DNA of 64,000 nucleotides from contig CAWJVW010000005.1 in NCBI GenBank assembly GCA_963846425.1, forward strand, positions 2,647,350 to 2,711,349, read 5' to 3'. Under the pieces are notes generated by a model. The model was not told the DNA's origin. It worked only from the letters and a program-made list of their open reading frames with translations, and ran no database searches. This stretch comes from an uncultured Acidobacteriota bacterium. GTDB taxonomy: Bacteria; Acidobacteriota; Vicinamibacteria; Vicinamibacterales; UBA2999. Positions within the stretch are counted from its first letter, which is position 1. Every line of letters starts with the position of its first letter. Positions 3,276 to 64,000 of this stretch are shown here, one piece after another. Made by a program: the position numbers and the translations under genes.

Positions 3276-3335
3276 GGGGACAGGCCTTGTCATCGGGGGA
3301 CAGTCCCTGTCATCGGGGGACAGTCCCCCTATCCC
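3276..3335. repeat. 3 tandem 20-bp units with GGGGACAG(G/T)CC core
   Basis: Units are ggggacaggccttgtcatcg (3276-3295), ggggacagtccctgtcatcg (3296-3315) and ggggacagtccccctatccc (3316-3335). The array is intergenic, between the LigD-pol stop (3351) and the DUF1080-like start (3217). Confidence 0.9.
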
Positions 3336-4236: not shown

Positions 4237-4257
4237 AAAAGGGGACTGTCCCCTTTT
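4237..4257. promoter_or_regulatory. perfect 21-bp palindrome AAAAGGGGACTGTCCCCTTTT (candidate operator or hairpin)
   Basis: 10+1+10 perfect inverted repeat centred on T4247. It lies in the 36-bp gap between the ligase stop (4266) and the pol start (4217/4229). It is identical to 24682-24702. Confidence 0.6.
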
Positions 4258-16342: not shown

Positions 16343-16364
16343 CTCAGGCCTCAGGCCTCAGTGT

Positions 16365-22913: not shown

Positions 22914-22963
22914 GATCACTAGATCACTAGATCACTAGATCACCAGATCCCAGATCACCAGAT
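22914..22963. repeat. tandem GATC-containing octamer array (about 6 units)
   Basis: gatcacta x3, gatcacca, gatccca, gatcacca, gat... The array starts 7 nt after the stop at 22907 and ends 15 nt before the SDR ATG (22978). Confidence 0.9.
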
Positions 22964-22977
22964 GCCCCCCGACCCCC

Positions 22978-23733
22978 ATGGATCTCAACGGTAAGACGGC
23001 CTTCGTGACCGGCGGCTCCGGCGACATCGGTGCCGCAATTGCCCAGGCGCTGGCCCGTGCCGGTGCACATGTCGCGATCTCGTACGTCGGACACAAGGAT
23101 GGGGCCATGGCCACGGCGGCCGCGATCGACGCAGCCGGGGTGCGAAGCCTGATGGTGCAACTCGATCAGCGGGATCCAGACTCGATCGACGCGTCGGTCG
23201 ATCAGGTAGTCAAGGGACTGGGACGAGTGGACATTCTCGTCAACAATGCCGGCTGGAACATCGGCATTCCATTCGCGGCGCTCGACGAGCTCACCGCTGA
23301 CATCTGGAACCGTGTCCACGAGACGAATCTACGAGGCCCGTACCTCCTTTCCAGGGCGTTCGCGCCGCATCTACGCGCGCACGGCGCCGGGCGGATTGTC
23401 AATATTGCCTCCGTTGGCGGGCTGCTGCCCGCAAGCAGCAGCGTCGCCTATTCGGCGAGCAAGGCCGGCCTGATTCACCTCACGCGTTGCCTGGCCGTTG
23501 CACTCGCTCCAACGGTCACGGTGAATTGCGTGGCGCCGGGATTGGTGGAAGGAACGCGCATGGCCGAGCGGCTGCCTCCAGCAGTGGCTGAAGGCGCTCG
23601 TCGTCAGGCCGTGCTTGGCCGAACGGCCAGCGTAGCGGACATCGCGGATCAGGTCCTGACATTCTGCCGTGCGGAGTCGGTCACTGGACAGGTGCTCGTC
23701 GTCGACGGCGGCATGCCTGGCGGCATGCATTAG
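22978..23733 (+). CDS. SDR-family oxidoreductase (FabG-like)
   Basis: TGGSGDIGAAIA (TGxxxGxG), NNAG and YSASKAG (YxxxK). Confidence 0.85.
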   Translation: MDLNGKTAFVTGGSGDIGAAIAQALARAGAHVAISYVGHKDGAMATAAAIDAAGVRSLMVQLDQRDPDSIDASVDQVVKGLGRVDILVNNAGWNIGIPFAALDELTADIWNRVHETNLRGPYLLSRAFAPHLRAHGAGRIVNIASVGGLLPASSSVAYSASKAGLIHLTRCLAVALAPTVTVNCVAPGLVEGTRMAERLPPAVAEGARRQAVLGRTASVADIADQVLTFCRAESVTGQVLVVDGGMPGGMH

Positions 23734-23752
23734 CAGATATGATTGCGCCATC

Positions 23753-23808
23753 TTGTGATCTGGTGATCTGGTGATCTTGCGATCTTGCGATCTTGTGATC
23801 TTGTGATT
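23753..23808. repeat. tandem GATC-containing octamer array (7 units), inverted relative to 22914-22963
   Basis: ttgtgatc, tggtgatc x2, ttgcgatc x2, ttgtgatc, ttgtgatt. The unit tggtgatc is the exact reverse complement of gatcacca in the upstream array. Confidence 0.9.
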
Positions 23809-24681: not shown

Positions 24682-24702
24682 AAAAGGGGACTGTCCCCTT
24701 TT
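24682..24702. promoter_or_regulatory. perfect 21-bp palindrome AAAAGGGGACTGTCCCCTTTT (candidate operator)
   Basis: Identical to 4237-4257. It lies 22 nt after the GNAT stop, abuts a TATAAT hexamer, and is 25 nt upstream of the thyA ATG. Confidence 0.6.
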
Positions 24703-25513: not shown

Positions 25514-26079
25514 TGCCTCACTTCGACATTGTCGTCGCGGCCGACGAGGCCGGAGGCATCGGCAAGCAAGGGCAGCTGCCATGGCATCTAAAAAGGGACA
25601 TGGCGCATTTCAAGCGACTGACGCAGGAACCGCCGACCGCCGACACCGTGAACGCGGTGATCATGGGACGCGTCACGTGGCAGTCCATTCCCGAGAAGTT
25701 TCGTCCGTTGCCGAGGCGGATCAACGTAGTCATCTCGGGCAATGCCGCGGTGCCGCTGCCAGACGACGTGATTCGCGCGAAGAGCCTGGACGAAGCACTC
25801 GCCACGCTGGATAGGATGGCTGACGTCGGTCGCGTGTTCGTGATTGGCGGCGGACAGATCTATAGCCAGGCGATCGTGCATCGGGATCTCGACACGATCT
25901 ATCTGACCCGCGTCCATGCCACGTTCAATTGCGACACTCGTTTTCCGGCGATCCCTCGCGCATTCGCGCTCGTTTCCGAGTCGCCGCCGCAGACCGAAGG
26001 ACCGTTGATGTACAGATTCTGCGAATATCGCCGCGCTCCCGCCGCGTCAACCATTCGTCACCGGGGACAGTCCCTGTAA
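25513..26079 (+). CDS. folA: dihydrofolate reductase
   Basis: [24 protein letters not shown]..., VIMGRVTWQSIP and VFVIGGGQIY. The ATG at 25513 overlaps the thyA TGA (TGATG). The last 17 nt lie inside the 20-bp repeat array. Confidence 0.9.
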   Translation: MPHFDIVVAADEAGGIGKQGQLPWHLKRDMAHFKRLTQEPPTADTVNAVIMGRVTWQSIPEKFRPLPRRINVVISGNAAVPLPDDVIRAKSLDEALATLDRMADVGRVFVIGGGQIYSQAIVHRDLDTIYLTRVHATFNCDTRFPAIPRAFALVSESPPQTEGPLMYRFCEYRRAPAASTIRHRGQSL

Positions 26080-26122
26080 CGGGGGGACAGTCCCTGTCAC
26101 CGGGGGACAGTCCCCGTAACGG
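26063..26122. repeat. 3 tandem 20-bp units with GGGGACAGTCCC core
   Basis: Units are ggggacagtccctgtaacgg (26063-26082), ggggacagtccctgtcaccg (26083-26102) and ggggacagtccccgtaacgg (26103-26122). Same family as 3276-3335. Confidence 0.9.
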
Positions 26123-30000: not shown

Positions 30001-30105
30001 AAAAGGCAAAAGGCAACAGGCAAAAGGCAAAAGGCAAAAGGCACAAGGCAAAAGGCACAAGGCAAAAGGCACAAGGCACAAGGCACAAGGCACAAGACAC
30101 AAGTC
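30001..30105. repeat. 15-unit heptamer array (A[A/C]AAGGC)n
   Basis: The array starts 2 nt after the TAG stop of the M1 gene. Units read aaaaggc x2, aacaggc, aaaaggc x3, acaaggc, aaaaggc, acaaggc, aaaaggc, acaaggc x3, acaagac, acaagtc. I counted it base by base. Confidence 0.95.
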
Positions 30106-30155
30106 AATAGTGAGAAGGCAGAGGAACGACACGCGGTTTGGAGAGGAGGCCGGTC

Positions 30156-36285: not shown

Positions 36286-36447
36286 GACCCGTCCAGGAAT
36301 AAGCGCGCCATTTTCGCAGCCGATGCATCCCGCCTGGCGGCGTTGCTCCTCGCTTGCATACACCCGGTATGCCACGCTCGTCGCGCCTTGCCATACGGGC
36401 GCCTCGACGCCGAGAAATGGCACACTTATTCCCGGACGAATCCTTAC

Positions 36448-37818
36448 GTGCCCAGCAAGACTCCAAGTGAGGTCCTCGAAGTCGCCGGCCGGGAGGTATC
36501 GATATCGAATCCCGACAAAGTGCTGTTCCCCGATGCGGGCTACACGAAGCGGGATCTGGCCCACTACTACCTTTCAGTTGCGGAGGGCGCGCTCGTCGGA
36601 GCAGGTGGACGGCCCAATGTGCTCGTTCGTTATCCGAACGGCATCACCGGCGAGTTCTTCTACCAGAAGCGCGCGCCCGAGTCGCGTCCCGACTGGATCG
36701 AGGTCGTCGCGCTGAAATTTCCATCAGGCCGTACCGCAGAGGAAATGGTGCCGCGGGATGCTGCCGCACTGGTGTGGATGGCAAACCTCGCGTGCCTGGA
36801 GCTGCACCCACACCCCGTGCGGGCCGACGATCTGGATCATCCCGACGAGCTGCGCGTGGACCTGGATCCAGTGCCCGGTGTTGAATGGGCGCAGGTGCGC
36901 GAGGTGGCGCGCGTCGTGGAAGCTGCGCTTGCGGATCTCGGACTCGTCGGCTGGCCCAAGACATCGGGATCGCGCGGCATCCACGTCAACGTGCGGATCG
37001 AGCGGCGCTGGACCTTCCACCAGGTCCGGCGTGCGGCCCTTGCGCTGGCCCGAGAGGTCGAGAGGCGAGCGCCCAGGCTTGCGACGAGCAAATGGTGGAA
37101 GGAAGAACGCCACGGCGTGTTCGTGGACTACAACCAGAACGCAAAGGACCGCACCGTCGCCTCCGCGTACTCCGTGCGTCCCAAGCCCGACGCGCGCGTA
37201 TCGGCGCCGCTGGCGTGGAGCGAAGTCGTCGAGGCAGAACCTGCCGACTTCACACTGAAGACCATGCCGGTGCGTTTCGCAAAGCTGGGTGACCGCCACC
37301 AGGCGATCAACGATCACCCGGGATCATTGGAACGCTTGTTGGAGCTGTCGGCACGACATGAAAAGGAAGGGCTCGGCGACGCGCCGTGGCCACCGCAATA
37401 CAAGAAACAGCCGGGCGAGCCGCCGCGGGTCCAGCCCTCGCGCCGCCGGAAGGCCAGTGACGTGAAATCAGTGGCCAGTGGTCAGAAGCCCGTGCCCAGC
37501 AGTCAGAAGTCAGAGGCCAGCGGCCGGCGCCGATCGAAGCATCCGCTGATCGAAATCGGTCGCGCACAAAAGAAAGAGGACGCCCTGGCTGGCCTGGAGC
37601 GCTGGAAGGAGCGTCATCCTACGGCGGCCGAACACCTCGAGCCCGCCGATGTGCTCGTGGACGCGATGCGTGGGCGTTCGTCCACGTGGACGCGGGTGCG
37701 GATCAACTTGCAGCATGTGCCAGCCAGTCTTCGACCCGAGCAAGAAGCCCTCGATCCCGATGATCCGCCCGAAGGCTTCACCGAGTGGCAAAGACTTTCT
37801 CGAGCTCGTAAGGCATAG
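36448..37818 (+). CDS. AEP primase-polymerase (LigD Pol-like / Prim-PolC-like) with ~145-aa C-terminal extension
   Basis: ...LEVAGREVSISNPDKVLFPDAGYTKRDLAHYY, catalytic RVDLDP, and SGSRGIHVNVRI. The start is ambiguous: GTG 36448 is preferred, and the track uses TTG 36343. The 3' end overlaps the convergent ligase gene by 41 nt. Confidence 0.85.
   Translation: MPSKTPSEVLEVAGREVSISNPDKVLFPDAGYTKRDLAHYYLSVAEGALVGAGGRPNVLVRYPNGITGEFFYQKRAPESRPDWIEVVALKFPSGRTAEEMVPRDAAALVWMANLACLELHPHPVRADDLDHPDELRVDLDPVPGVEWAQVREVARVVEAALADLGLVGWPKTSGSRGIHVNVRIERRWTFHQVRRAALALAREVERRAPRLATSKWWKEERHGVFVDYNQNAKDRTVASAYSVRPKPDARVSAPLAWSEVVEAEPADFTLKTMPVRFAKLGDRHQAINDHPGSLERLLELSARHEKEGLGDAPWPPQYKKQPGEPPRVQPSRRRKASDVKSVASGQKPVPSSQKSEASGRRRSKHPLIEIGRAQKKEDALAGLERWKERHPTAAEHLEPADVLVDAMRGRSSTWTRVRINLQHVPASLRPEQEALDPDDPPEGFTEWQRLSRARKA
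37454..37523 (+). repeat. heptamer-periodic tract inside the Prim-Pol CDS
   Basis: Units are ccagtga cgtgaaa tcagtgg ccagtgg tcagaag cccgtgc ccagcag tcagaag tcagagg ccagcgg. They are translated as 7-aa repeats ASDVKSV/ASGQKPV/PSSQKSE/ASGRRRS. Confidence 0.75.
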
Positions 37819-38848
37819 TCACGTCGAGTTGATCGTAGCGACAGTCGCCAGGCTGTTTGTCGGGGCGCCATCGGAGAAAGACGGCCGCGTGCCGAAAACG
37901 ATCGCCCTGCAGGTGGTCGTACTTCACCTCGCAGACGCGTTCAATCCGCAACGGCTCCCACGAGAGGTCCTTGCCTGCGCTCCAACGGCTCTGCCCCCCC
38001 GGCATGCGCGTCGTCACGCCCTCAGCTGCCGCCCATTCGCGCCAGGGGTGCTCCTTCATAGCGTTCTTACGCAGCGGCTCGAGCTCGACCGCCAGCTCCT
38101 TGCGCTTCGCCATCGTGAATGATGATGTCACGCCGACATGCTGCAGTTTGCCCCCGTCGTCGTATAGCCCCAGCAGGAGCGAGCCCACCGACCCCTCGCC
38201 AACCTTGTGCCAGCGGAATCCCGCGACGACGCAATCGGCCGTGCGCGCGTGCTTGATCTTGATCATCGCGCGCTTACCCGGCTGGTAGACGCCGTCGATC
38301 GGCTTCGCGATGACGCCATCGAGGCCGGCGCCCTCGAATTGCTCGAGCCAATCGCGAGCCACGTCGCGGTCCCGGGTCATCGGCGTTAAATGGAGCGGCG
38401 GTTTGACCCGAGCTAGAAGCTGCTCGAGTTTGCCTCGGCGCTCGTCTTGCGGCGCCGCCAGCAGGGCGTGATCGTTGACAGCCAGAAGATCGAAAGCCAC
38501 GAACGAGGCCGGCGTCTCTTTGGCCAGTTTCGCGACTCGCGACGCCGCGGGATGCAGGCGCAACTGCAGCAGATCGAAGTCGAGGCCATGCGGAGTTGCG
38601 ATGACGATCTCGCCGTCGAGGACGCAACCCGGCGGGAGGGTCTCGAGGAGCACCTCGTGCAGTTCGGGAAAGTAGCGGTCGAGCGGCCGTGAATCGCGGC
38701 TCTGGATGTACACCTCTGAATCGCCGCGAAACACAATCGCGCGAAACCCATCCCACTTCGGCTCGAACAGAAAATTCCCAGCCGCGGGAAGCTCCTCGGC
38801 CAGTTTGGCCAGCATGGGCTCAATAGGGGGGTCGATGGGAAACGGCAT
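37778..38848 (-). CDS. ligC: ATP-dependent DNA ligase (LigC-type, stand-alone)
   Basis: MPFPIDPPIEPMLAKL... starts at ATG 38848, while the track start is 38956. Motifs are EPKWDGFR (KxDG), LDGEIV, FVAFDLL, DGVIAKP and MIKIKH. Confidence 0.85.
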   Translation of the reverse strand: MPFPIDPPIEPMLAKLAEELPAAGNFLFEPKWDGFRAIVFRGDSEVYIQSRDSRPLDRYFPELHEVLLETLPPGCVLDGEIVIATPHGLDFDLLQLRLHPAASRVAKLAKETPASFVAFDLLAVNDHALLAAPQDERRGKLEQLLARVKPPLHLTPMTRDRDVARDWLEQFEGAGLDGVIAKPIDGVYQPGKRAMIKIKHARTADCVVAGFRWHKVGEGSVGSLLLGLYDDGGKLQHVGVTSSFTMAKRKELAVELEPLRKNAMKEHPWREWAAAEGVTTRMPGGQSRWSAGKDLSWEPLRIERVCEVKYDHLQGDRFRHAAVFLRWRPDKQPGDCRYDQLDVTMPYELEKVFATR

Positions 38849-38888
38849 GCGGCAAGCAGTATCAAGGCAACAGGAAAAAGGCAATAAG

Positions 38889-40367
38889 ATGCGCGCCATG
38901 AAGGCTTCGGTTCTGTGTATAGCGCTCGCAATGTTGACGGCCTGCGCCTCTCGCACGGCCCCGACTCCGCCAGAACGCTTTGCGGACGCGGCTCAGTACC
39001 GCGCCGCGCGCGAGCGGCTCATCCAACGAGAGCGCGCGCTCGGGCTTGGGGGCGATCTCGTCCTGACGCCCGACGAAGAATCAGCCAATCGCCGGCTGAT
39101 GGCCCTCAAGCGGGATGAGCTCGAGCGGACGCGCGAGCATTTTCCTCCCGCTCGCAGCTTCCTCCTCAACGAGACCAAGCAACGGATTGCCATGTCGCCT
39201 GTGCTCGACGTGATGCGCCGGATGCCCAAGGGCGGCATTCTCCATGCCCACGGGTCTGCAATGGGTGACTTTCGCTGGCTCGTCTCCCACGTGACATATT
39301 TACCCAACTGCTACATGTATGTCGGTGACGCCCCGCAGCTGGTTCGCGGCATGCTGCGGGTCTCGGACCAGACCCCTGGCGAAGGTTGGCGTCTTGTCAG
39401 CGAGCTTCGCGCAGCGGCCCCGGACCTCAAGGCGTTCGACGAGGAGATCTACCAATCGATTACGCTCGGCGAAGAGGACATTCGCGATCCGCAAATCTGG
39501 GACGAATTTGGCCGCAACTTCCGCCGCAGCGGCGGTCTCCTCGCAAATCGCGCCGTTCACACCGAGTTCTGGCGCAGGATGCTCTTGAGCCTGATCGACG
39601 AGAACGTCCAGTACCTGGAATCGCGCACGCCACCCATCGATGAAGCAATCATTCGCGACATTCGACAACGTGACCCGGACTTCGACGTCAAGTTCATTCC
39701 GGCAGCCGGACGCGGCGAGGGGCGCGAGCGGATCGCGCAGAGTTTGAACTACGCCGTACAACAGCGTGTCGAGAATCCCGAACGGGTCAAGGGTTTTGAC
39801 CTGGTTCAGGAAGAAGATCGGACGAACACCAACCTGTTCTACCTCGAGGAGCTCCTGGCGGCACGGCGTGAAGCGGAGCGGCGCGGCACCAGCCTGCCCT
39901 TATATCTGCACTCGGGCGAGAGCAACTGGGCCGAGAACGAAAACCTGTACGATGCTGTCCTGCTTGGCGCGTCACGCATTGGACATGGGCTGGCGCTCAT
40001 CAAGCATCCACTCTTGATGGAAATCGTGAAGGCGCGTGGGATCGCGATCGAAGTTTGCCCAATCAGCAACCAGGTTCTCGGCTTCGTGCCCGATCTCAGG
40101 AACCATCCCGCGGTGTACTACATCAACGCCGGATTCCCGGTGGTCCTGTCGCCAGACGACCCTGGCATCATGCAACACTCCCTGTCCCACGACTTCTATA
40201 CCGCGTTCATGGCGTGGGGACTCGACCTCAGGAGCCTGAAGCAGCTGGCGATCAACTCACTGGTTCATTCGGCGATGAACCCCGACGAAAAGCGTCGCGC
40301 GCTCGATGCGTTTGGCCGCCGATGGGCTGCTTTCATTCAGTGGCTCGCACGCGACGCCGTGCAATGA
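38889..40367 (+). CDS. adenosine deaminase-family lipoprotein (ADA2/ADGF-like)
   Basis: Start moved to ATG 38889. The lipobox is in MRAMKASVLCIALAMLTAC. Catalytic motifs are ILHAHG, LHSGES, RIGHG and SPDDPG. Confidence 0.8.
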   Translation: MRAMKASVLCIALAMLTACASRTAPTPPERFADAAQYRAARERLIQRERALGLGGDLVLTPDEESANRRLMALKRDELERTREHFPPARSFLLNETKQRIAMSPVLDVMRRMPKGGILHAHGSAMGDFRWLVSHVTYLPNCYMYVGDAPQLVRGMLRVSDQTPGEGWRLVSELRAAAPDLKAFDEEIYQSITLGEEDIRDPQIWDEFGRNFRRSGGLLANRAVHTEFWRRMLLSLIDENVQYLESRTPPIDEAIIRDIRQRDPDFDVKFIPAAGRGEGRERIAQSLNYAVQQRVENPERVKGFDLVQEEDRTNTNLFYLEELLAARREAERRGTSLPLYLHSGESNWAENENLYDAVLLGASRIGHGLALIKHPLLMEIVKARGIAIEVCPISNQVLGFVPDLRNHPAVYYINAGFPVVLSPDDPGIMQHSLSHDFYTAFMAWGLDLRSLKQLAINSLVHSAMNPDEKRRALDAFGRRWAAFIQWLARDAVQ

Positions 40368-51992: not shown

Positions 51993-52033
51993 GGTCACGG
52001 TCCACGGTCCACGGTCGACGGTCCACGGTCCAC
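51993..52033. repeat. heptamer array (GGTCCAC)n, 6 units
   Basis: Units are ggtcac ggtccac ggtccac ggtcgac ggtccac ggtccac. The array fills the gap between the ThuA stop (52037) and the start of the hypothetical gene (51987). Confidence 0.9.
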
Positions 52034-57620: not shown

Positions 57621-57647
57621 TGCAGCTTACGCAGATTACGCAGATTT
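57621..57647. repeat. 9-mer repeats tgcagctta cgcagatta cgcagattt
   Basis: Sits between the terminator and ATG 57670. The same CGCAGAT(A/T) unit recurs in both orientations at 62261-62480. Confidence 0.7.
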
Positions 57648-61350: not shown

Positions 61351-61368
61351 GGTCTACGGCCGTGGACC
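61351..61368. terminator. palindrome ggtctacggccgtggacc between convergent fdhD and nei
   Basis: A 7-bp stem (one G-U pair) plus a GGCC loop, built from GTRGRCC-family heptamers. It contains the nei stop codon (61354-56). Confidence 0.4.
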
Positions 61369-62202
61369 GTCGGCCTGATTCTTTTGACACCCTGGACACC
61401 AATAGGTGACCCGCGCGTCGTCTCCATCTTTGCGACTGGCGATTGGCGTGCAGCATTTGCGACAGGGCTGACCACCGCGGCTGTACACCCAAAGGCGATC
61501 TTCGTGATTGACACGGCTGGCCGTCCGACGCAGGCCGGAATACGTGACGATAGCGGCACCTGAAGTGTCGGAGACGTTGGCCTTCAACAGCTTGCGCGCA
61601 AGCGCCATGACGCCACGAAGCTGCTCGTCGGTCAGGGCGCTGGCTGGCATGTCGGGATGGATGCCCGACAAGAACAGAATTTCGGACTTATAGACGTTGC
61701 CGATACCGCTCATCACGCGCTGATTGAGCAGCAGGGCGTGCATTGGCATGTCACCGATCTGGCGGAGGCGCGCGAGCGCCAAATCCGCATTGAAGTCACC
61801 GAGCAGGTCGGGTCCAAGCCCCGCGAGCGGCGGATGCTGCGGGAGCTTTTCTGCCCGGATGAACTCTGCGACGTAAACGTCGAAGGCGACAGCAACCCAA
61901 TCCGCAGTCTCTATCAGAATGCGCATCGCGCGTGCGGGCCTTTGCCACTTTTCGCCGTGGCGATAGATGTGCCACGACCCGTTCATCCGCATATGGGTGC
62001 GGAGCACGAGACCGCCCGAAAGCGTCATCAAGAGATGCTTGCCTGCGGACTCCACGCGCTCGACCGTACGACCTCTGATCGGCTCGCCCCGGTCAATTTG
62101 AGCGAGCGCGACGAGACCGGTCTCGAAGCGGGTGATCTGCTGACCGGCCAGCGCACGATCAAGCGTCCGCGCGGCCCTGAAGATGGTGTCGCCTTCTGGC
62201 AT
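61354..62202 (-). CDS. nei: Fpg/Nei-family DNA glycosylase (endonuclease VIII-like)
   Basis: ATG 62202 gives MPEGDTIFRAARTL (catalytic Pro2/Glu3). The C-terminal zinc finger is CRKC...CPGC. The track's longer N-terminus is read through the palindromic element. Confidence 0.88.
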   Translation of the reverse strand: MPEGDTIFRAARTLDRALAGQQITRFETGLVALAQIDRGEPIRGRTVERVESAGKHLLMTLSGGLVLRTHMRMNGSWHIYRHGEKWQRPARAMRILIETADWVAVAFDVYVAEFIRAEKLPQHPPLAGLGPDLLGDFNADLALARLRQIGDMPMHALLLNQRVMSGIGNVYKSEILFLSGIHPDMPASALTDEQLRGVMALARKLLKANVSDTSGAAIVTYSGLRRTASRVNHEDRLWVYSRGGQPCRKCCTPIASRKDGDDARVTYWCPGCQKNQADGPRP

Positions 62203-62260
62203 GACTCTGTCTTTGATTACACCAATACTCCGATACCGTGATGACTCAGAAAAGGTCAGC

Positions 62261-62480
62261 CGCAGATATCGCAGATATGAAGTGGCTTGCGCGCGGCCGT
62301 AGGCCGCGTAGAAGACCGTGTGGGGGTGCGGGGATAAGTGAACCACATGTTCAATCCCGTTCACTTATCTCCGCACCCCCACACGGTCTTCTTAGCGCCC
62401 GCTACGCGGGCGCCGCAAGCCACTCTGTCGCAGATAAGATCATCTGTGTTCATCTGCGTTAATCGGCGTAATCTGCGGCG
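62261..62480. repeat. composite palindromic element (33-bp stem core 62311-62391) between lhr and nei
   Basis: gaagaccgtgtgggggtgcggggataagtgaac (62311-43) pairs with gttcacttatctccgcacccccacacggtcttc (62359-91) with 1 mismatch and a 15-nt loop. Flanking hairpins are gcggcc-gta-ggccgc and gcgcccgc-tac-gcgggcgc. The outer match is agtggcttgc/gcaagccact. CGCAGAT 9-10-mers occur on both sides. Confidence 0.85.
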
Positions 62481-64000
62481 GCCTTTGTCTCGGCGTCATC
62501 TGCGGTACCAGAGACATTCGCCCGTGCACGGCGGGCGACTCGAAGCTGCAGTCCCATTGCCGTGGCGGCGAAGCCAACCTCCAACAGGAACGGGGCCGCA
62601 GCGTCGGCCGCCGCCGCCGCGCCATTGATCTCTTCGATGAGCCAACCTCGACTTCCTTCAGGTGCGCGATGCGCGAGATTGACGAGCTCCTTCGCAAGCG
62701 CCCGTGCGATGCGTGAGCGATCGGGCTCGTCGGGCGGCAGCGCCACAAGCAGCGAGCGATCGCCTCGCGCAATCCATGCCGTCAGGCGGCCATCTACCAG
62801 CACCACGCGGGCGCCGGCCGACCGCGATGCTCTGAGCGGACTCGCCGTGCCAGACGGCCCCGCCCAATCCGGCCACGGCAGCATGGCGCCGTAAGGACTT
62901 GCGGGATCGGTTGCCGCAAGCGTGACGACGCTGGGGGTTTCGCCTTCCTCGCGCGCGGCGCGCAGCAAGTCAACGGCGCCAGGCTGCGCAAATTGCGCGG
63001 CACCAAGCCCGGTTACGAAATACCCGCGTCGCACACGGCCCGTTTCCTCCAGCCGGCGCAACACCGGATACACGGCGCTGAAGCCACCTGGGATCTGCTC
63101 GACGGAGGTGACCTCGCGGGTCACGATGCCGTGGCGAGTCAGGAGCTGCTGTGAAAACGCGGTGGCCCATTCTGTCAGCGATCGCATTTCAGGCGTCACA
63201 ATCGCGGTCCAGCGTCCCTCGGCCGATGGGGGAACGAGCCTGCGTGATCGAAAAGCCGTCGCGCGTCCCGGTCGTCGCGATCGCTCCGGCGGTCGCAAGT
63301 AGGCACGCAGCGCGTGCAGCGTGTCGTTGGTTACAAGGCCCTTCCACACGAGTGACCACAACGCGTCAACCGTTTCTTGCGGGAATCCGCCGCCAGTGGA
63401 CGCGTGGAGCGGTGCGAAGAATGCTGCACCCGAACCACGCAGCCGATCCAGGATCTCGGGCTCGCGGCCCGTCAAGGGCGTGGGAGTCGCGGCCTCCTTG
63501 AAGCCCTCACGAGGGGGCAGCAGCCGAGAGAGATGATCGGTGAGATACAAGGCGATCCGCCCGTCGCGATCCCCCAGCGGTTCTACGCCGATCCACGCCA
63601 CCTCGCCCGCGCCAAGCAGCGTGTCGAGCTGCGCCGGTATGTACCCGCGCACGCGGGCAGGCAGAATGTCGAATTCCAGCAGCGATGCCACGAGCGGGAC
63701 GCCCTGCAATTGCTCAATGACATCCAGCAAGGCATCGAGTCCACCGTGTGCCCGGTTGATGCCGTGCCATGCCGTGAGAAAGCGACTAAGCACCGGGGCC
63801 TCCACCGGTTCGACTTCCTGGCGGAGCCGAGCAAGCGAGCGCCGACGAATGCTGCGCAGGACGTCGGCATCACACCATTCGCGGCCGCGCCCGCCAGGCC
63901 GAAACGCACCCTCGACCACGCGGCCCGTGGCCGTAAGGCGCGCAAGAACTGTCTCGATGCCGGTCAGCGGAAGACCCAACCGTACGCTGATATCACTCGA
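62459..64000 (-). CDS. lhr: Lhr-family ATP-dependent helicase, C-terminal region (partial; 5' end beyond window)
   Basis: ...GRVVEGAFRPGGRGREWCDADVLRSIRRRSLARLRQEVEPV... and the following ~500 aa resemble the DEAD-associated/C-terminal domains of Lhr. The reading frame stays open to position 64000. Lhr-Nei adjacency is a known synteny. Confidence 0.7.
   Translation of the reverse strand, partial: SSDISVRLGLPLTGIETVLARLTATGRVVEGAFRPGGRGREWCDADVLRSIRRRSLARLRQEVEPVEAPVLSRFLTAWHGINRAHGGLDALLDVIEQLQGVPLVASLLEFDILPARVRGYIPAQLDTLLGAGEVAWIGVEPLGDRDGRIALYLTDHLSRLLPPREGFKEAATPTPLTGREPEILDRLRGSGAAFFAPLHASTGGGFPQETVDALWSLVWKGLVTNDTLHALRAYLRPPERSRRPGRATAFRSRRLVPPSAEGRWTAIVTPEMRSLTEWATAFSQQLLTRHGIVTREVTSVEQIPGGFSAVYPVLRRLEETGRVRRGYFVTGLGAAQFAQPGAVDLLRAAREEGETPSVVTLAATDPASPYGAMLPWPDWAGPSGTASPLRASRSAGARVVLVDGRLTAWIARGDRSLLVALPPDEPDRSRIARALAKELVNLAHRAPEGSRGWLIEEINGAAAAADAAAPFLLEVGFAATAMGLQLRVARRARANVSGTADDAETKAAADYAD

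Follow-up and report, generated by a model that had tools for sequence, protein, structure and literature searches.

Palindromic sequences of the REP, BIME and REPIN kinds are species-specific at orthologous positions and act as barriers to mRNA decay. Arrays of the heptamer TAACTGA have been described near start codons in Beggiatoaceae, cyanobacteria and Bacteroidetes (PMC4679880), and template switching has been found to correct and to grow quasi-palindromes in work on short inverted repeats (PMC5941160). The criteria by which MITEs are recognized, together with the effects of such elements at the RNA level, are also established (PMC3184786). The genes lhr and nei2 form an operon in mycobacteria (PMC11323726), for which co-transcription and induction by damage were reported (PMC9841417).

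Here, the spacer between the DNA-repair genes lhr and nei is described in a stretch of 64,000 nucleotides from an uncultured soil member of the Acidobacteriota, which was analysed as a whole and is hereafter called the window. The main point is a mirror layout that recurs between these two genes and outlasts complete turnover of the underlying sequence. The mirror region of the window is best explained jointly by two layers of different age, a MITE-like origin of the inner layer, and an effect as an intercistronic barrier or processing site, a combination to which we give an even chance of being right. Thus, what looks like one "composite palindrome" in a single genome can represent two unrelated events that differ in age.

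Organization of the lhr–nei region

The best matches of Nei are proteins of Vicinamibacterales and Acidobacteriota; the host is Vicinamibacterales-like, and the mycobacterial setting implied by an earlier, sequence-only reading of the window is therefore wrong. Its description of lhr and nei as a conserved adjacent pair holds at this locus, as judged from Pfam domains and from synteny in relatives; lhr is followed by nei on the same strand and in the same order in L001, L002, L088, L091 and L094. Both genes are encoded on the minus strand of the window, separated by a gap of 256 bp, and the features of the region, listed from lhr to nei, are as follows.

62459-64000, minus strand: 3′ part of lhr, encoding the Lhr C-terminal domain and extending beyond the window; Pfam WH3_Lhr and WH4_Lhr; C-terminus of the product GLQLRVARRARANVSGTADDAETKAAADYAD (translation), i.e. 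...TKAAADYAD; stop codon 62459-62461
62425-62518, minus strand: lhr-side arm (X) of layer 1, CGCAGAT(G/T)A units of 9-10 nt
62414-62424: lhr-side arm of the outer stem, CGCAAGCCACT on the plus strand, 11/11 complementary to 62281-62291
62395-62413: small GC hairpin hp1, GCGCCCGC tac GCGGGCGC, 8-bp stem and 3-nt loop
62311-62392: core hairpin (layer 2), 82 bp, near-perfect inverted arms; ends to be expected of a related IS630/Tc1-like gene, GAAGACCGTGTGGGGG
62292-62308: small GC hairpin hp2, CGCGGCC gta GGCCGCG, 7-bp stem and 3-nt loop
62281-62291: nei-side arm of the outer stem, AGTGGCTTGCG on the plus strand, partner of 62414-62424
62203-62280, minus strand: nei-side arm (X′) of layer 1, inverted copies of the 9-nt unit, growing more degenerate
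61354-62202, minus strand: nei, encoding an Fpg/Nei-family DNA glycosylase of 282 aa with the N-terminus MPEGD; Pfam Fapy_DNA_glyco and H2TH

Arm X spans the final ~19 codons of lhr, the stop codon and 34 nt of the spacer. Its units lie at 62496-62504, 62469-62477 and 62450-62458, with a degenerate unit at 62440-62448 and a unit of opposite orientation at 62429-62437. The sequence-only reading had correctly placed CGCAGAT units in opposite orientations on the two sides and had recognized that the repeats encode AADYAD at the end of Lhr, in which the product indeed terminates, but it overlooked the additional plus-strand unit at 62429-62437. Arm X′ contains two perfect CGCAGATAT units on the plus strand (62261-62278); it complements the lhr tail and stops at the ATG of nei. 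The best block of the mirror alignment is 40/48 identical, and the symmetry extends over ~62203-62518, wider than had been described; the last ~19 lhr codons are therefore included. The repeats were also compared with the DnaA box, the LexA box and Tn7-like ends, and these candidates were rejected for misfits in spacing or consensus.

The core arms proposed at 62311-62343 and 62359-62391, with one mismatch and a 15-nt loop, were recovered exactly, and the A-T pair 62310/62392 lengthens this 33-nt stem to 34 positions, such that the arms 62310-62343 and 62359-62392 form 33 pairs and one mismatch around the loop 62344-62358. The core is bounded by TA at 62309-62310 and TA at 62393-62394. The two small GC hairpins reported to flank it are present (62292-62308 and 62395-62413), as is the outer inverted match, for which the length of 10 bp had to be corrected to 11/11, and ORFs containing VHLSPHPHTVF were found on both strands, as claimed. 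The reading frame of nei stays open through the hairpin arm, and for this reason the ENA call of the gene (61354-62364, minus strand; P0243 in L085, a 336-aa ORF starting MNGIEHVVHLSPHPHTVF...) is 54 codons too long; nei truly begins with the conserved MPEGD at 62202, and the longer call is an annotation artefact.

Full-length Lhr has 1553 aa according to the gene call in L085. Past the GLQLRV(A/P)RR motif, the Lhr tails (P0121-P0175) are hypervariable and mostly acidic, often with a D-A or A-D end, a pattern that appears to fit unstable in-frame repeats as a source of coding sequence. A protein search with the Lhr C-terminus for nearer relatives reached ~79% at best. Elsewhere in the window, a LigD primase-polymerase domain gene (36343-37818, plus strand) is convergent with, and slightly overlaps, an ATP-dependent DNA ligase gene (37778-38956, minus strand); a LigD-domain protein and a DNA ligase are components of bacterial end-joining repair.

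Strength and uniqueness of the fold

A 33-nt arm match with one mismatch was absent from 100 shuffles of the window. The 298-nt spacer is predicted to fold at -173.8 kcal/mol (z -13.5), and the 144-nt module gave z -15.6 as RNA and z -16.4 as DNA, with a predicted four-way junction; the RNA folding that had been suggested as a check thus places both the spacer and the module (z -13.5 and -15.6) far beyond chance. The lhr–nei palindrome is the only compact one of such strength in the 64-kb window. When the core and one TA were removed in silico, the predicted energy changed from -200.1 to -130.8 kcal/mol and the remaining fold was unaltered, the core contributing about -69 kcal/mol and the 34-position duplex.

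Two further readings of the core are very improbable, namely that it serves lhr as a conserved intrinsic terminator or attenuator and that it is an assembly artefact. L085, a second assembly of the species, carries an identical element while differing from the window at 6 sites in 12.6 kb (99.95% identity), and the palindrome is therefore not an artefact of assembly. With regard to termination, hp1 lies 46 nt downstream of the lhr stop, within the range of distances at which inverted repeats are most frequent in bacteria (PMC13155455), but no terminator-like site with a U-tract was found on either strand of 61900-62800, the sequences after the stems being CUACGCGG and CUAAGAAG; the 34-position stem is far longer than terminator stems, and the core is absent from all relatives. 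A terminator or attenuator role is thus unsupported, given the missing consensus and the relatives, and the suggestion that the element carries a promoter fared no better, as no sigma-70-like promoter consensus was found at the locus. Rfam 15 gave no match at the gathering threshold, only generic microRNA hairpins below it, and no match in the spacers of relatives. No tRNA or tmRNA was found in the region.

The lhr–nei spacer in related lineages

About ten lineages were compared at lhr–nei. The identity of their Nei to that of the window is 86-89% in L003, 75% in L093, 68% in L094, L095 and L096, and 54% in L017 and L020, and layer 1 occurs, whole or in part, in relatives with Nei of only 68-77% identity. 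Alignment of the window spacer without its core gave z 15.1 for L001, z 13.8 for L094 and z 8.6 for L093.

L003, the closest relative available, shares the lhr tail, the CGCAGAT units, the outer-stem arm AGTGGCTTGCG and hp1 with the window. Its lhr tail and spacer match X at 89% over 130 nt, and its hp1 has the same stem with a different loop. After hp1, the L003 sequence reads TA-G and passes straight into the last ~20 nt before nei; the core is absent, and the spacer fold is unremarkable. The L094 group possesses the full plan, with six direct and six inverted CGCAGAT-type units, the outer stem and two GC hairpins, and has no long hairpin. The six direct CNCAGAT units of this group emerge from the lhr tail (...NTDSADSADFEHNAD*), its inverted units stop 7 nt before the nei ATG, and its fold reaches z -4.5 to -5.0. 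The outer stem of L094 has a different sequence at the equivalent position, and a different hairpin of 10-11 bp takes the position of hp1, while hp2 is kept as GCGGCC-TWC-GGCCGCGCGC. The alignment of L094 is continuous across the core position, with the two small hairpins adjacent and nothing between them. L093 carries a homologue of the nei-side arm upstream of nei ("TATCTGCGGCTGAC", "TTTTCTGAGTCATC").

The core was absent from L003, from L094 and from all other relatives examined, and it showed no similarity to the spacers of relatives (z about 0). On this comparison, the repeats, the outer stem, hp1 and hp2 are old resident sequence, and 62311-62392 appears to be the sole new part, specific to this species among the lineages examined. 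Empty sites, which the sequence-only reading had proposed to look for, were found in L094, where the hairpins are adjacent, and in L003, where hp1 is followed by TA; the element is thus not one that all relatives keep at this junction. Since parts of layer 1 are common to L003, L001, L093 and L094, the composite is not one inserted element. Accordingly, the proposal that a MITE-like insertion splits the gene pair may hold for the 82-bp core as the added DNA, and falls for the whole ~200-bp composite, the halves of which are resident in relatives.

A single MITE-like mobile element of ~200 bp between lhr and nei is indeed scarcely credible. The large inverted symmetry, the very stable fold and a 12-nt imperfect direct repeat near the outer stem (TCGCAGATATGA / TCGCAGATAAGA) would be expected of one, but the "direct repeat" consists of two copies of the 9-nt satellite unit found throughout the locus, orthologues of the lhr-side half, which includes lhr codons, are present in L003, L001 and L094, the nei-side half is common to L093 and L094, and the window holds no other copy.

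The missing nei-side half of L003 was most likely lost by that lineage. When positions 150-190 of L003 are compared with 62222-62394 of the window, the missing stretch begins exactly at the TA of the core and ends ~20 nt before nei, which, as a sequence pattern, suggests a deletion provoked by the palindrome or a fragile site. The boundary of the deletion coincides with the position of the core, and the core could therefore predate the split from L003; its arms would then have to owe their lasting identity to selection or to arm-to-arm correction. Two further candidates were tried and rejected. A one-step fold-back duplication giving the core together with X′, first suggested by L003, fails because L093 and L094 show X′, hp2 and the outer stem to be old, and hp2 did not arise by mirroring of hp1 followed by compensatory changes, because it has its own ortholog in L094.

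Origin of the core

According to the proposed mechanism, layer 2 would be a small palindromic element that inserted, in this species only, at a TA between hp1 and hp2, landing at the tip of the older structure and leaving the older pairing undisturbed. The core has the MITE traits of near-perfect inverted arms, small size, TA flanks, empty sites and no relation to its surroundings. We put a MITE-like origin at close to an even chance, or slightly below, and the evidence for it is weak. The check for a target-site duplication yielded TA..TA only, which is 2 bp long and self-complementary, and which arises by chance about once in 16 cases, and more often given the freedom of boundary placement.

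Searches for further copies of the core were negative throughout. The other copies that had been anticipated were found neither in ~72 kb of the ~3.3-Mb genome, i.e. the rest of the ~64-kb window and 8 kb of L085, nor in the collections searched: an exact 30-mer of the core has no other copy in 185,579 species-representative genomes, a 21-mer matched only L004 among JGI metagenome contigs, by chance and without a palindrome, a gapped palindrome search of IMG/VR and blastn against plasmids and phages returned nothing, and blastn-short revealed no copy in ~400 kb of collected sequence. At the protein level, HMMER with the 74-aa ORF across the element found two repeat proteins only (P0244 and P0245), and a search with words of the 54-aa ORF returned nothing. 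P0244 and P0245 consist of many tandem copies of one unit and are evidently translated repetitive DNA from elsewhere, the similarity being compositional. The 40 largest window ORFs included no transposase.

The main rival is a local, non-mobile origin, which we consider rather unlikely. New sequence at the tip would have been mirrored by template switching or by hairpin-primed repair synthesis, and arm-to-arm correction would have kept the core near-perfect since. No search produced a second core copy, and the core sits exactly on the symmetry centre of the older palindrome. Template-switch correction of imperfect inverted repeats is documented (PMC5941160), and bacteria have been seen to undergo symmetric indels that leave inverted repeats intact (PMC13155455). 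As TA is its own reverse complement, TA..TA is equally expected from mirror growth. Against this origin, the core arms are unlike the local sequence and the spacers of relatives, so that the source of ~48 nt of new sequence is unexplained, and the asymmetric 15-nt loop is unlike the product of a simple fold-back.

Rebuilt mirror spacers and tandem arrays

Layer 1 is a palindromic resident spacer that changes fast between lineages. In the window, a 9-nt repeat (CGCAGATGA-like) doubles as code for the acidic tail of Lhr and continues past the stop, followed by the 11-bp outer stem around two GC hairpins and then by inverted repeats up to the nei ATG. This layout is inherited and, according to lineage, kept whole, kept half or rebuilt from other units.

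The 237-bp spacer of L088 is built of a 25-nt unit, GGGGTCAGGTCATGAAC(A/G)TGA, in three direct and four inverted copies, which leave only 10 nt free past the lhr stop and 4 nt in front of the nei ATG (763-1001; z -10 to -11). The 177-bp spacer of L091 and L092 (L091 823-1001; z -3) uses 8-nt GGCGATTG-type units that begin inside the lhr tail, and CAATTACC x4 reaches the nei ATG. The Nei proteins of L088 and L091 are 94% identical, whereas their spacers share no sequence beyond "TAATTTG" after the stop; the units are unrelated, yet both spacers are mirror-symmetric. All spacers of at least 173 bp are strongly structured (z -3.0 to -13.7), and the shorter ones of L001, L002, L003 and L005 are not. 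Homology of the core to the 25-nt unit of L088, with which it shares TGAACATG, was considered and rejected (z 0.37).

Direct arrays without an inverted partner run up to the nei start in L017 (GCTGARA x10, 1433-1502) and in L020 (CCCTGAT x4, 155-190), and arrays abut the nei ATG in L017, L020, L088, L091 and L094 and, likewise, the starts of several window genes. No repeat-number polymorphism was seen among near-identical strains (L088/89/90, L091/92, L094/95/96 and window/L085), samples that are possibly non-independent.

Tandem arrays also fill other spacers of the window. The 8-nt array GATCACCA x6.4 (22914-22963) lies just before a short-chain dehydrogenase gene (22978-23733), and its reverse complement, ATCTGGTG/ATCTTGTG x7.2 (23750-23807), lies just after the gene, so that 39-nt arms, 85% complementary and 801 nt apart, form a mirror pair around a whole gene. 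Three heptamer arrays directly follow stop codons: AAAAGGC x15 (30001-30107) that of a peptidase M1 gene, CACGGTC x5.4 (51996-52033) that of a ThuA gene, and CTCAGGC x2.7 (16343-16361) that of a PBP-family gene. A second array of the lhr-tail motif, GCAGATTAC x2.8, is located at 57622-57646, where it follows a T-rich, terminator-like run and precedes the ATG of a small ORF by ~23 nt, and is 94% complementary to 62461-62477; CGCAGAT units occur in the window only in this array and at lhr–nei. A REP-like family of 20-nt hairpins (GGGGACAGTCCCTGT; unit GGGGACAGTCCCTGTNACSG), partly tandem, has 8 copies, where 0.06 are expected, at the following four loci.

Window, REP-like family: 3276-3330, 4239-4253, 24684-24698 and 26063-26117

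Satellite-filled spacers thus appear to be a genome-wide trait, and layer 1 of lhr–nei is, given the tandem arrays in many other spacers of the window, a local mirrored case of a genome-wide habit.

These observations bear on the question of whether the layout has a function at all. The whole region may be a neutral, self-maintaining palindromic satellite without function, a reading that we take seriously while holding it to be less than even. A coding 9-nt microsatellite at the 3′ end of lhr would have spilled into the spacer and once been duplicated in inverted orientation; slippage and arm-to-arm conversion would renew it, and deletions would erode it in some lineages. Short tandem arrays in many spacers of this genome and at lhr–nei in L017 and L020 agree with such a history, as do the patchy distribution of the layout over the tree, half of it being deleted in L003 and in L001, and the wholly different spacers of L088 and L091 despite 94% identity of Nei, which is unlike a conserved regulator. 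On the other hand, the mirror layout outlasts complete turnover of its units, of which there are at least three families, hp1 and the outer stem recur with different sequences at equivalent positions in the window and L094, and a long palindrome usually disappears if nothing acts to keep it.

The same persistence could be taken to mean that the spacer of this Vicinamibacterales clade is a structure-conserved element with a freely changing sequence, a long hairpin with satellite arrays as arms, one of them coding for the Lhr tail, the arms of which stay complementary through full replacement of the units, even between lineages with Nei of 94% identity, and of which the core is the newest extension rather than a foreign transposon. 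We consider this improbable. Selection would then act on an RNA or cruciform structure that links nei expression to lhr and is renewed by slippage and arm-to-arm copying.

Possible role of the hairpin

In an lhr–nei transcript, a single hairpin of ~295 nt is predicted for the region, with a near-perfect 34-position duplex at its tip. Such a hairpin could act as an intercistronic barrier or processing site, as the target of a double-strand-specific RNase, and it would block exonucleases or read-through, partly uncoupling the expression of nei from that of lhr. Going by the behaviour of comparable hairpins in other bacteria, an intercistronic RNA barrier or processing site would be the most likely effect; neither a promoter nor a classical terminator is as probable.

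Layer 1 could alternatively be a translational device, in which the repeats by the nei ATG would serve as a single-stranded landing or enhancer site and pairing with the lhr tail would mask them, such that nei is translated only when ribosomes reach the end of lhr. Between the inverted arrays and the nei ATG there are 0-20 nt, nei has no clear Shine-Dalgarno sequence in the window, L088, L091, L094, L017 or L020, the partner strand consists of the last ~19 lhr codons, and translational roles have been proposed for start-proximal heptamer arrays of other phyla (PMC4679880). In the predicted fold, the lhr tail does pair with repeats that lie further upstream of nei. Yet when the lhr tail was masked in partition-function folding, the accessibility of nei positions -20..+13 changed from 0.50 to 0.50 in the window and from 0.36 to 0.37 in L088, and went down in L091; accessibility is not raised by masking, and the simple unmasking version is therefore unsupported. 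Moreover, the L088 hairpin begins after the lhr stop, and the 82-bp core is left unexplained. We thus regard a translational device as a long shot, and an RNA barrier or processing site remains the preferred effect.

If the mirror layout is selected, it would be a new way to tie the expression of a DNA glycosylase to that of its partner helicase; if it is not, it would offer a natural system for the birth, maintenance and loss of palindromes in bacteria. The core would illustrate clearly how a hairpin can land at the single harmless spot of an older structure. More broadly, the arrays point to a little-described habit of these abundant soil bacteria, in which spacers consist of 7-9-nt and 20-25-nt tandem repeats, sometimes as mirror pairs, that turn over much faster than the flanking genes.

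Comparison with known systems

The locus resembles the mycobacterial lhr–nei2 operon in the gene pair, its order, the C-terminal winged-helix domains of Lhr and the Fpg/Nei glycosylase. It differs in that the host belongs to the Acidobacteriota, the spacer is long, structured and clade-specific, and the pairing is known here from gene order alone.

Template switching would account for the complementarity of the arms despite sequence change, and for a near-perfect tip arising or persisting. Unlike the short repeats used in that work, the palindrome described here is built of satellites, is ~300 bp long and extends over a gene end. To our knowledge, a satellite-built palindrome of ~300 bp spanning a gene end has not been described before.

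As in the TAACTGA-type repeats, units of 7-9 nt form arrays at many loci, near starts that lack a canonical ribosome-binding site. Unlike in those repeats, the motif varies by locus, and at lhr–nei it is mirrored, complementary to the upstream coding tail and part of a long hairpin.

REP, BIME and REPIN sequences (PMC3116915, PMC3337134) are likewise palindromic units in operon spacers, but the lhr–nei units are not dispersed in high copy, their stems are much longer, and a block of direct copies faces a block of inverted copies instead of alternating with it; no RAYT gene was seen in the window. The lhr–nei units are also distinct from the dispersed REP-like family of this genome.

The core itself is comparable to the TA-duplicating bacterial MITEs of the Correia, ERIC and Nezha type (PMC3184786), in that it is 82 bp long, intergenic and inside an operon, consists almost entirely of inverted arms, forms a very stable hairpin, and has TA..TA flanks and empty sites. 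In contrast to these elements, neither another copy nor a partner transposase or insertion sequence was found for it in the ~72 kb of the genome searched; it is shorter than the named families, its arm sequence matches nothing in the collections searched, and a 2-bp flank is weak evidence. The core and layer 1 are thus variations on element types already known, a MITE-like hairpin being combined with satellite-built spacers.
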